Origin: Eubacteriales bacterium
Lineage (GTDB): Bacteria; Bacillota; Clostridia; Oscillospirales; CAG-382
Assembly: GCA_045636665.1 (NCBI GenBank)
Contig: JAZTXY010000098.1
Coordinates: 1-51,537 of the forward strand
Length of the DNA stretch: 51,537 nucleotides
Reading direction: 5' to 3'
Below are positions 12,523-15,091 of the stretch, piece by piece (the stretch's first letter is position 1; every line of letters begins with the position of its first letter). The translations under genes were made by a program, and so were the position numbers. A model generated the notes under the pieces. The model saw only the letters and a program-made list of their open reading frames with translations, was not told where the DNA came from and made no database searches.

Positions 12523-12596
12523 GGAGCTGGTGGAGGGATTCGGACCCTCGGCCTATTGATTACGAATCAATTGCGCTACCCCTGCGCCACACCAGC
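12522..12596 (-). tRNA. tRNA-Thr(CGT)
   Basis: GCTGGTG acceptor stem, ATTGA-TT-CGT-AA-TCAAT anticodon arm, GAGGG-TCCGAAT-CCCTC T arm (C rather than U at position 55), encoded CCA. Confidence 0.93.
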
Positions 12597-14365: not shown

Positions 14366-14452
14366 GCCGGAATGTTGGAATTGGCAGACGTCCTGGGCAC
14401 AAAATCCAGTGGTAGCGATACCGTGCGGGTTCGACCCCCGCTTCCGGCACCA
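14366..14452 (+). tRNA. Atypical tRNA-Leu(CAA) (A33, weakened D stem)
   Basis: GCCGGAA/TTCCGGC acceptor stem, A73, encoded CCA, GGAATTGGCAGAC D loop, long variable arm GGTA-GCGA-TACC, normal T arm; anticodon loop reads CA-CAA-AA. Confidence 0.85.
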
Positions 14453-14455
14453 TGC

Positions 14456-14493
14456 AAAAAACCTCTTTTGTCTACTGGCAAAAGAGGTTTTTT
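14456..14493 (+). terminator. tRNA terminator / left boundary hairpin of the islet
   Basis: AAAAAACCTCTTTTG...CAAAAGAGGTTTTTT. Confidence 0.8.
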
Positions 14494-14495
14494 AT

Positions 14496-14686
14496 AATGA
14501 TATCCGTTCCTTGCGGAACGGGTGATATATCTTCGATATGATTTCCTTTATGGATACGCCGAAGGCATATCCATAAAGATGATATATGCCTGCGGCATAT
14601 GAGGAACGGATATTATATCATGCTTGCGAAGCAAGTATATCATGCCGCGCAAGCCGTATATCATGCCGCGTTAGCGATATATCATT
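14496..14686. repeat. Multi-hairpin palindromic element (REP/BIME-like) built on ATGATATA/TATATCAT cores
   Basis: TATATCAT at 14614, 14636, 14657 and 14678; inverse cores at 14497, 14522, 14538 (degenerate) and 14579; mini-hairpins between cores; terminal IR AATGATAT/ATATCATT. Confidence 0.8.
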
Positions 14687-14761
14687 GAAAAGCACAATAA
14701 TTTGTGGTGGCATTAAAAGAATGTTGATCGCTAATTGCAAAACGCTAAAGGAGAACATAAA

Positions 14762-15091
14762 ATGAAAATTTCCATTGAAGAACTTCAGACATACCTGGCG
14801 AAACGATACCGTGGGTGGGCCAATGAACAAGGCTTGTTTATGAAGCTGGTTGAGGAAATCGGTGAGGTTGCCGAGGTTTTGAACAAGCGAGCCGGTCGCA
14901 AAAACGCTGATGAAAAAGATCTCCGGGAACAATTAGGCACCGAACTTGTGGATATGATACATTACATTGTTGCGATTGCTGCAATTAATGATATTGATCT
15001 TTCCACGCTTATGATTGAAAAAGATAAAAAAGCATCTATCAAGTACCATCACGCAATCAATCTCGAAATGTTCCTGTCAGAGAAGAAATAG
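14762..15091 (+). CDS. MazG-like all-alpha NTP pyrophosphohydrolase
   Basis: KLVEEIGEVAEVL...ELVD (EExxE...ExxD) motif; RBS AAGGAG. Confidence 0.85.
   Translation: MKISIEELQTYLAKRYRGWANEQGLFMKLVEEIGEVAEVLNKRAGRKNADEKDLREQLGTELVDMIHYIVAIAAINDIDLSTLMIEKDKKASIKYHHAINLEMFLSEKK

Follow-up and report, generated by a model that had tools for sequence, protein, structure and literature searches.

A two-armed Gut-1 (RF01706) array behind tRNA-Leu, very probably the worn, gene-less copy of a cassette bearing a PF05635 four-helix-bundle gene

The window examined here, i.e., the whole stretch of 51,537 nt that was analysed from a Eubacteriales bacterium, contains a tRNA-Leu(caa) gene called by ARAGORN on the plus strand (14366..14452), followed on the same strand by an intrinsic terminator hairpin (14456..14493), a two-armed array of short words and hairpins (left arm 14495..14608, right arm 14610..14687), a -35 box TTGAAA with the start of a promoter spacer (14685..14696), the last 22 codons and stop of a PF05635 four-helix-bundle (4HB) gene (14697..14765) and a MazG-like gene (14762..15091). 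The terminator consists of a perfect 15-bp stem with an A-run before it and a T-run after it; it is a member of a repeated cassette, and sequence comparison finds it in near-identical form behind different tRNAs in other species. A first-pass annotation had described the array as lying directly behind a tRNA. A tRNA-Leu(caa) is indeed directly upstream in the same orientation, as in other copies of the cassette, but the two are not flush, since the terminator hairpin stands between them. At the gathering threshold, Rfam recognizes only the tRNA-Thr of the window (12525-12596), and the long-arm tRNA-Leu found by ARAGORN (14366-14452) gives just a 30-bit tRNA-Sec match in a permissive Rfam scan.

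The array is built from a short word repeated in two opposed orientations. On the plus strand, TATATCAT occurs at 14614, 14636, 14657 and 14678, at spacings of 22, 21 and 21 bp, and it is found on the minus strand at 14579; the array thereby holds five of the seven matches of the 51.5-kb window, where 1.30 +/- 0.99 are expected and none of 100 shuffles reached seven. Facing these sites are the cores ATGATATC (14497), GTGATATA (14522), ATGATTTC (14538) and ATGATATA (14579), so that the arrangement of four cores facing four inverse cores reported at first pass is borne out at every site by direct reading of the letters. The same is true of the mini-hairpins in the spacers, all six of which were found (14504-14521, 14527-14539, 14546-14578, 14584-14600, 14623-14635 and 14668-14677), and of the alternative pairing of 14497-14511 with 14602-14616 (15 nt, 93% complementary). 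In the left arm, read on the plus strand, the linker words at 14497, 14522, 14538 (mutated to ATGATTT) and 14579, with a degenerate fifth at 14599, alternate with hairpins H1 (14504-14521), H2 (14527-14539), H3 (14546-14578) and H4 (14584-14600), of which H3 has 15-nt arms that are 93% complementary and bears a 21-nt extension. The centre (14602..14616, plus strand) is the complement of the first 15 nt of the array, which gives the 5' arm of H1 a second possible pairing site. Hairpins of the minus-strand right arm are H5 (14620-14638), H6 (14642-14659, with one C.C mismatch) and H7 (14663-14680), read on the plus strand together with TATATCAT. Over 14453-14700, a range that includes the terminator, the plus strand folds at -97.8 kcal/mol against -58.1 +/- 4.3 in shuffled sequences (z -9.2), and the minus strand gives a z of -9.5 against shuffles.

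Although the first-pass annotation took the element for a structured repeat or RNA of a family that could not be named, only the first half of this description stands: the array is a structured non-coding dispersed repeat, but its family has a name, Gut-1 (RF01706), and a match to a described ncRNA family is what the first-pass annotation itself had set as refuting novelty. In a permissive Rfam scan, the left arm (plus strand, 14495-14608) scores 39.0 bits (E 1.5e-6) and the right arm (minus strand, 14610-14687) scores 27.5 bits against RF01706, both below the curated cut-off of 50 bits. The low score is due to the replacement of the second hairpin of the model, P2, by 42 nt, and to the linker UGAUAU in place of UGAAAU; with UGAUAU so substituted, all three stems and the four linkers appear when the window copy is aligned to the model. 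The cut-off is reached by copies 72-91% identical to that of the window and by copies that share its exact central 19-mer, the left arm giving 20 hits in 16 of 20 such loci, and the orthologous tRNA-Leu locus of genome G003 scores 63.5 bits. Membership in RF01706 therefore rests on homology and not on score, the window copy lying below the cut-off while homologous copies pass it. Other sub-threshold Rfam matches (PyrR, several microRNAs, the L10 leader and others) were set aside as weak matches to hairpins.

In the available portion of its original description, a table entry for Gut-1 counts 43 representatives and rates it as "RNA: Y", not cis-regulatory and "human gut only" (Weinberg et al., 2010; PMC2864571), and the published seed includes GUGAUAU-type linkers (supplement of PMC2864571). 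The catalogued motif and the window copy both consist of hairpins separated by a constant U-G-A-rich heptamer, the family comes from gut Clostridia and metagenomes, and the covariance model matches both window arms; the catalogued motif differs in being a single arm of three hairpins, against which the window copy reaches 39 and 27.5 bits rather than 50. As judged by comparison of sequences, Gut-1 as catalogued is one arm, i.e., half of a two-armed array of about 175 nt. No mention of a second arm, a tRNA flank, a neighbouring gene, a context or a function was found in the available portion of PMC2864571, and a literature search, with most subscription journals outside its coverage, returned no paper in which Gut-1 is connected with a second arm, with tRNA flanks or with PF05635. 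The name is thus already known, while the two-armed unit, its tRNA setting, the cassette and the relation between words and protein clades were not found in print.

A BLASTN search of the own genome with the element returned only the self-match. In related genomes, 14 matches that are full-length or nearly so, with 72-91% identity, were found in 9 of 60 genomes, and the exact central 19-mer occurs in at least 121 stretches among the matches listed, in gut and rumen MAGs which, among those matches, are labelled Acutalibacteraceae, Faecousia, Ruminococcus, Oscillospiraceae and similar. Over 76 copies, the conserved block extends from CAATGATAT to ATATCATTG, both ends forming a 9-bp terminal inverted repeat. 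Pair counts over these copies, together with an alignment of 10 copies, reveal the compensatory changes that a structured element should carry: the fourth pair of H2 is TA in 42 copies, CG in 19 and GC in 11, that of H3 is GC in 28, CG in 23 and TA in 17, that of H4 is TA in 51 and CG in 24, and that of H5 is CG in 38 and TA in 35. The words stay constant while the stems vary by compensation. On the gene strand, the order of the arms is four to five steps of word plus hairpin, then the centre, then three to four steps of hairpin plus complementary word, and this order is common to the window's class and to the canonical UGAAAU class. The first word and the 5' arm of H1 are complementary both to the centre and to the 3' arm of H1. 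The complement between start and centre exceeds all 100 shuffles in 41 of 52 arrays from several word classes, with a median of 10 nt against 5 and with differing letters, and it is the pairing preferred by RNAalifold. In 160 distinct hairpins from both arms, the gene strand shows 27 G.T against 7 A.C.

Two one-armed arrays were also observed (L243:540-675 and L278, the latter on the minus strand of G039:C5), with five ATGATGT words, or four GGTAAAT words and a degenerate fifth; they have words on the sense strand only, keep their hairpins and lead directly, without an intervening promoter, to the ribosome-binding site of a 4HB gene. MAG contigs very often end inside or beside an array (e.g., G010:C291, G038:C25, G026:C42, G018:C57 and G032:C1). 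Array copy numbers in MAGs are therefore underestimates, as the repeat appears to break short-read assemblies.

Intact copies are cassettes made of a terminator, an array, a promoter and an Avd-like PF05635 4HB gene. Sixteen gene-bearing copies, located behind at least 10 different tRNA or tmRNA genes, share a homology that begins at the CCA end and stops with the last codon of the 4HB gene, its stop codon. Their promoter reads TTGAAA-17-TGATATAAT, with the -35 box overlapping the last word, and is followed by a ribosome-binding site and a gene of 117 aa which scores 84-88 bits against PF05635 and 91-95 bits against TIGR02436; by sequence, the protein matches PDB entries 2RLD (E 8e-40) and 2GSC, each with five chains. 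The search for a consistently linked enzyme gene thus yielded one recurrent neighbour, but this is a PF05635 4HB gene and not a transposase. In 9 of the 16 cassettes, the ATG or GTG of the next ORF overlaps the TGA stop of the 4HB gene, with an overlap of 8 nt in one more, and the genes that follow are mutually unrelated. The last 4HB codons spell the ribosome-binding site AAGGAG, so that the cassette supplies translation signals to the following gene; overlaps of the type ATGA or GTGA are seen at L013, L019, L035, L041, L047, L049, L082, L084 and L105, and at 14762-14765 of the window.

To our knowledge, PF05635 proteins have no known role outside diversity-generating retroelements (DGRs). 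The neighbour gene of the array belongs to the same protein family as Avd of DGRs and as the PF05635 ORFs of 23S rRNA intervening sequences, and here too members of the family are encoded next to or within genes for stable RNAs and strongly structured nucleic acid. On the one hand, DGRs differ from the present case, in which there are no template or variable repeats and no reverse transcriptase was found in the 80%-complete genome. On the other hand, unlike the ORFs of the 23S intervening sequences, the cassette gene is located downstream of tRNAs and not inside rRNA, and it has been lost from the window copy. PF05635 is related to the DGR protein Avd, and 2GSC is cited as an assembly of five four-helix bundles in the available portion of a published account (PMC10053308).

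In the window, no complete same-strand PF05635/TIGR02436 gene follows the array. The promoter spacer runs straight into the last 22 codons and stop of the 4HB gene (14697..14765), placed by profile alignment at positions 96-117 of the intact-gene profile (E 4.4e-6; 21.7 bits in the whole-genome ORF search), and alignments with intact copies place the missing -10 box TGATATAAT within the same gap. A deletion of about 330 bp has taken this box and codons 1 to about 95 of the 4HB gene. The remnant still supplies the AAGGAG ribosome-binding site and the ATGA overlap to the MazG-like gene (14762..15091), whose ATG overlaps the TGA stop of the remnant. The orthologous MazG-like gene of G018 and G011 still has an intact 4HB gene upstream, which in G018 stands behind a GTGAAAT-class array. 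The closest copies, with 91% identity, are those of G017 behind tRNA-Leu(gag) and of G032 behind tRNA-Glu(ctc), both with an intact gene and both sharing the extended third hairpin with the window. Further marks of decay in the window copy are the third word, ATGATTT, and the C.C mismatch of hairpin 6, and a genome-wide search found no intact 4HB gene of the window's class in the 80%-complete genome. Given the deletion of the -10 box and most of the gene and the lack of a gene of the matching class in the assembly, the array is most likely a functionless relic. That it is, taken together, a Gut-1 family member and a worn copy devoid of its gene is a conclusion we hold with high confidence; on its own, such a decayed copy with its gene lost is a modest finding.

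The expectation of the first-pass annotation that the element might be enriched behind tRNAs was confirmed. A profile found 124 copies, 110 of them with at least 150 nt upstream, and a tRNA or tmRNA gene immediately precedes 70 of these 110 in the same orientation, and none in the opposite one. In 65 of the 70, the gene lies within 25 nt of the profile start, and the upstream tRNAs of the 110-copy set are of many different kinds. Besides these 70, a tmRNA truncated at the contig end precedes one copy, and another array precedes several. At the orthologous tRNA-Leu(caa) loci of 26 genomes of the genus, sequences diverge exactly after the CCA end and continue into different arrays, tandem arrays or none: one locus has a TGAAAT-class array with its gene, one a tandem TGATG-class array, one a window-class array behind an extra piece of about 95 nt and one a terminator and promoter without an array, while some have nothing comparable.

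Several features of these loci were recorded in passing. The piece of about 95 nt, GC-rich and hairpin-forming, occurs at L254, L255, L258, L262, L266 and L251 (G034, G014, G002, G030, G011 and G027, respectively), between the terminator of the tRNA and the next cassette, and at its end repeats the final 17-22 nt of tRNA-Leu(caa), with the CCA. The piece has the appearance of a small insertion without genes at the 3' end of the tRNA, and matched no Rfam family at the gathering cut-off in the four loci scanned. In L255 (G014), a cassette-type terminator is followed by ATTGAA-N17-TGATATAAT and an unrelated gene with no array between, as if the array had been cut out, or had never been inserted, between terminator and promoter. 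Contig C97 (L161:1-430) starts inside the first of two gene-less tandem arrays, of the ATGTAAT and then the GTGAAGT class, which are separated by a tRNA-3'-like fragment of about 25 nt and a terminator.

The linker words themselves differ from array to array. The own genome contains eight arrays with at least six words (C98, C138, C14, two in tandem in C97, C123, C124 and C22), those other than the window's having been found with the Rfam model and a word scan; five of the eight lie directly behind a tRNA, a single one is of the window's class, and none reaches the RF01706 cut-off in a scan of the genome with the model. The three intact 4HB genes of this genome each stand behind a different word. 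Metagenomes, relatives and the own genome together supplied 71 4HB genes that had at least 230 nt of upstream sequence, and a two-armed array was called upstream of 60, one of them spurious; such counts are lower bounds, as the exact-word caller is crude and missed or mis-called L013, L082, L111, L035, L174-176 and the own arrays of C14 and C124, besides making one false array at C81. Three main protein clades go with the words TGATAT (28 rows), TGATG (13 of 15) and TGAAG (14 of 18), and three apparent exceptions turned out to be errors of the caller. On a quick tree of the 4HB proteins, of which 39 of 66 inner branches are unresolved, the word labels require 18 changes, against 41.8 in shuffles, and none of 200 shuffles was as low. 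Such agreement is expected from linkage alone, since array and gene are adjacent and inherited together; it is consistent with recognition of the words by the 4HB protein.

Among 112 arrays of the window's word class with at least 200 nt downstream, 22 are followed by a 4HB gene, 2 by a broken one and 88 by none. Of nine relatives with full-length window-class arrays, four hold the class's gene intact, at 89% identity or more, one has fragments and four have none above 63%, the last group including genomes that are 97% and 98% complete. G039, itself 98% complete, carries well-formed, compensated window-class arrays while its four 4HB genes stand behind other words. All three results count against a strict dependence of the arrays on the 4HB protein.

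As a whole, the locus is best explained, by a narrow preference on our part, as the eroded, gene-less array of a tRNA-flanking cassette whose word is read by the 4HB protein. According to this explanation, the 7-nt word, here (A/G)TGATAT, would be what the cassette's own 4HB protein recognizes, and this protein, judging by its solved relatives, is probably pentameric; the hairpins would keep the words single-stranded and evenly spaced on the sense strand, and the first word with the 5' arm of H1 could alternate between pairing locally, as a hairpin, and pairing at long range with the array centre. Binding of the words by the 4HB protein, taken as a separate proposition, is evenly balanced in our judgement. 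Binding would act back on 4HB expression, as the -35 box or the ribosome-binding site lies right against the last word. In the TGAAG, TGATG, GCGATAT and GGTAAAT classes, the array abuts the ribosome-binding site with no promoter between, and at L205 a short hairpin without a T-run stands alone between tRNA and array.

If the protein binds at all, we lean slightly toward sense-strand RNA or a single strand, rather than duplex DNA, as its target. Covariation, the pairing of start and centre, the abutment on ribosome-binding sites, the arrangement at L205, the one-armed arrays and the G.T bias all favour a single-stranded sense reading. Set against sense RNA is the right arm, which on one RNA strand reads as the complement of the word. 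In the window's class, moreover, only read-through of the tRNA terminator would bring the array into the 4HB mRNA, since the promoter comes after the array and a strong terminator before it. The one metatranscriptome run consulted, sharing 6% of the sampled words, gave diverged, tRNA-like contigs that cover the tRNA part only and nothing of the array, a result that speaks neither for nor against transcription.

The most serious alternative, which we nevertheless consider rather unlikely, is a duplex-DNA operator or iteron array, in which the 4HB protein or another factor would bind the words as double-stranded inverted repeats two helical turns apart and repress or organise the adjacent promoter, like ParR on parC or the omega repressor on its heptads. 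In parC/ParR, omega-repressor heptads and plasmid iterons, phased short words near a promoter are bound by a small oligomeric protein encoded alongside, and the resemblance is real: the words of the array are phased at 22/21/21 bp in two inverted blocks, the last word overlaps the -35 TTGAAA in the window's class and the -35 box in the GTTATAT class of G039, a strong terminator precedes the array in the window's class and leaves it outside the 4HB mRNA, and a small, putatively oligomeric protein is at hand. Furthermore, DNA is the sole form common to all classes, as the place of the array with respect to the start of transcription differs among them. A duplex binder, however, has no need of the hairpin potential of the spacers, which is kept by compensation, and would leave unexplained both the conserved pairing of start and centre and the one-strand bias of G.T over A.C; many arrays, in contrast to these systems, have no adjacent promoter.

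The distribution of the arrays raises the question of movement. Near-identical cassettes follow at least 10 different tRNA or tmRNA genes, and the MAGs that carry them are labelled as belonging to different families. The first-pass suggestion of a mobile or recombination element thus retains some force, since this distribution suggests mobility, but a search of the genome for HUH transposase, tyrosine recombinase and reverse transcriptase found none of them near an array. As it had also noted, no transposase is present among the 38 ORFs of the window in a family search, and neither were integrase or reverse-transcriptase families hit. Movement or exchange is inferred from distribution only, given that no such enzyme was found beside the arrays and that no tRNA-end repeat occurs in the window.

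One form of movement would be integration at tRNA 3' ends, the array being an attachment-site arm, i.e., the tRNA-proximal end of small islands that recombine there. The exact divergence of the tRNA-Leu(caa) loci after CCA, the piece of about 95 nt with its tRNA-Leu 3'-end copy in six genomes and the tRNA-3'-like fragment between the C97 arrays would all fit. We consider this improbable, however, since the 3' end of the tRNA-Leu is not repeated in the window beyond chance (the sole other match has 3 mismatches and lies 31 kb away), the three tyrosine recombinase genes of the genome are all on contigs without arrays, and the same cassette follows at least 10 different tRNAs with a homology that starts after the tRNA and not inside it; no recombinase was found in the window or on array-bearing contigs. 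Integron attC sites, imperfect palindromes of 60-140 nt that act as folded single strands between swappable genes, offer another parallel. Arrays would likewise be folded, single-strand-type palindromes separating swappable genes of the same orientation, but they have no IntI-type integrase, obey another internal grammar, that of repeated words, and are anchored at tRNA genes.

A free-standing small RNA gene, as implied by the Rfam typing of Gut-1 (Gene; sRNA), is in our view quite improbable. The stems do covary, and Gut-1 was rated "RNA: Y" and not cis-regulatory in the available table (PMC2864571). No promoter separates terminator and array, however, as the array begins 1-3 nt after the T-run; for the second arm, a promoter on the minus strand would be required at a site occupied by one on the plus strand; the placement is fixed, before one gene family or after tRNAs; and the G.T bias of the right arm favours the plus strand rather than the Gut-1 orientation.

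REP, BIME and REPIN elements combine a conserved short word with a hairpin, in opposed orientations, depend on a RAYT (Y1/HUH) enzyme and reach hundreds of copies per genome. The first-pass comparison of the array with such HUH substrates (RAYT, IS200/IS605-type), moved as single-stranded DNA, was not supported and is the most improbable reading of all: although the word-by-hairpin grammar in opposed orientations, the location outside genes after a terminator, the way in which sequence classes track the linked protein gene, the excess of gene-less over gene-linked copies and the spread of near-identical cassettes behind different tRNAs in MAGs labelled as different families all recall these elements, the 80%-complete genome yielded no full Y1 transposase, its sole trace being a Y1_Tnp fragment (41 of 121 positions, 24.3 bits) on the array-less contig C130, the window ORFs gave none of the families listed above, the recurrent neighbour is PF05635, and the arrays number eight of all classes and one of the window's class in the genome, rather than many near-identical copies flanking a Y1 gene, each being a unit of seven to eight different hairpins in fixed position and orientation behind tRNAs.

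Coming back to the cassette with a word-reading 4HB protein, what the comparison means for the family goes beyond the decayed copy in the window. Since contigs often break at arrays, the unit matters for the annotation of MAGs; the catalogued motif is half of this unit, which in gut genomes of the Oscillospirales type flags a variable position downstream of tRNA genes. Gut-1 has been catalogued since 2010 as a gut-only RNA without an explained function, and the comparison offers both Gut-1 and PF05635 a candidate partner. More speculatively, and at a probability that we would put well below even, the Gut-1 array and the Avd-like 4HB gene may form a new kind of self-contained genetic module, in which a small pentameric protein would read a private 7-nt word that a single strand displays between hairpins; the pair would home to, or be tolerated only at, the 3' flank of tRNA and tmRNA genes, would come with a terminator and a promoter of its own, would furnish the following gene with a start codon, and would leave gene-less arrays behind, such as that of the window. 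If this were true, non-DGR PF05635 proteins, including those of 23S rRNA intervening sequences, would be sequence-specific partners of structured repeats located beside stable-RNA genes.
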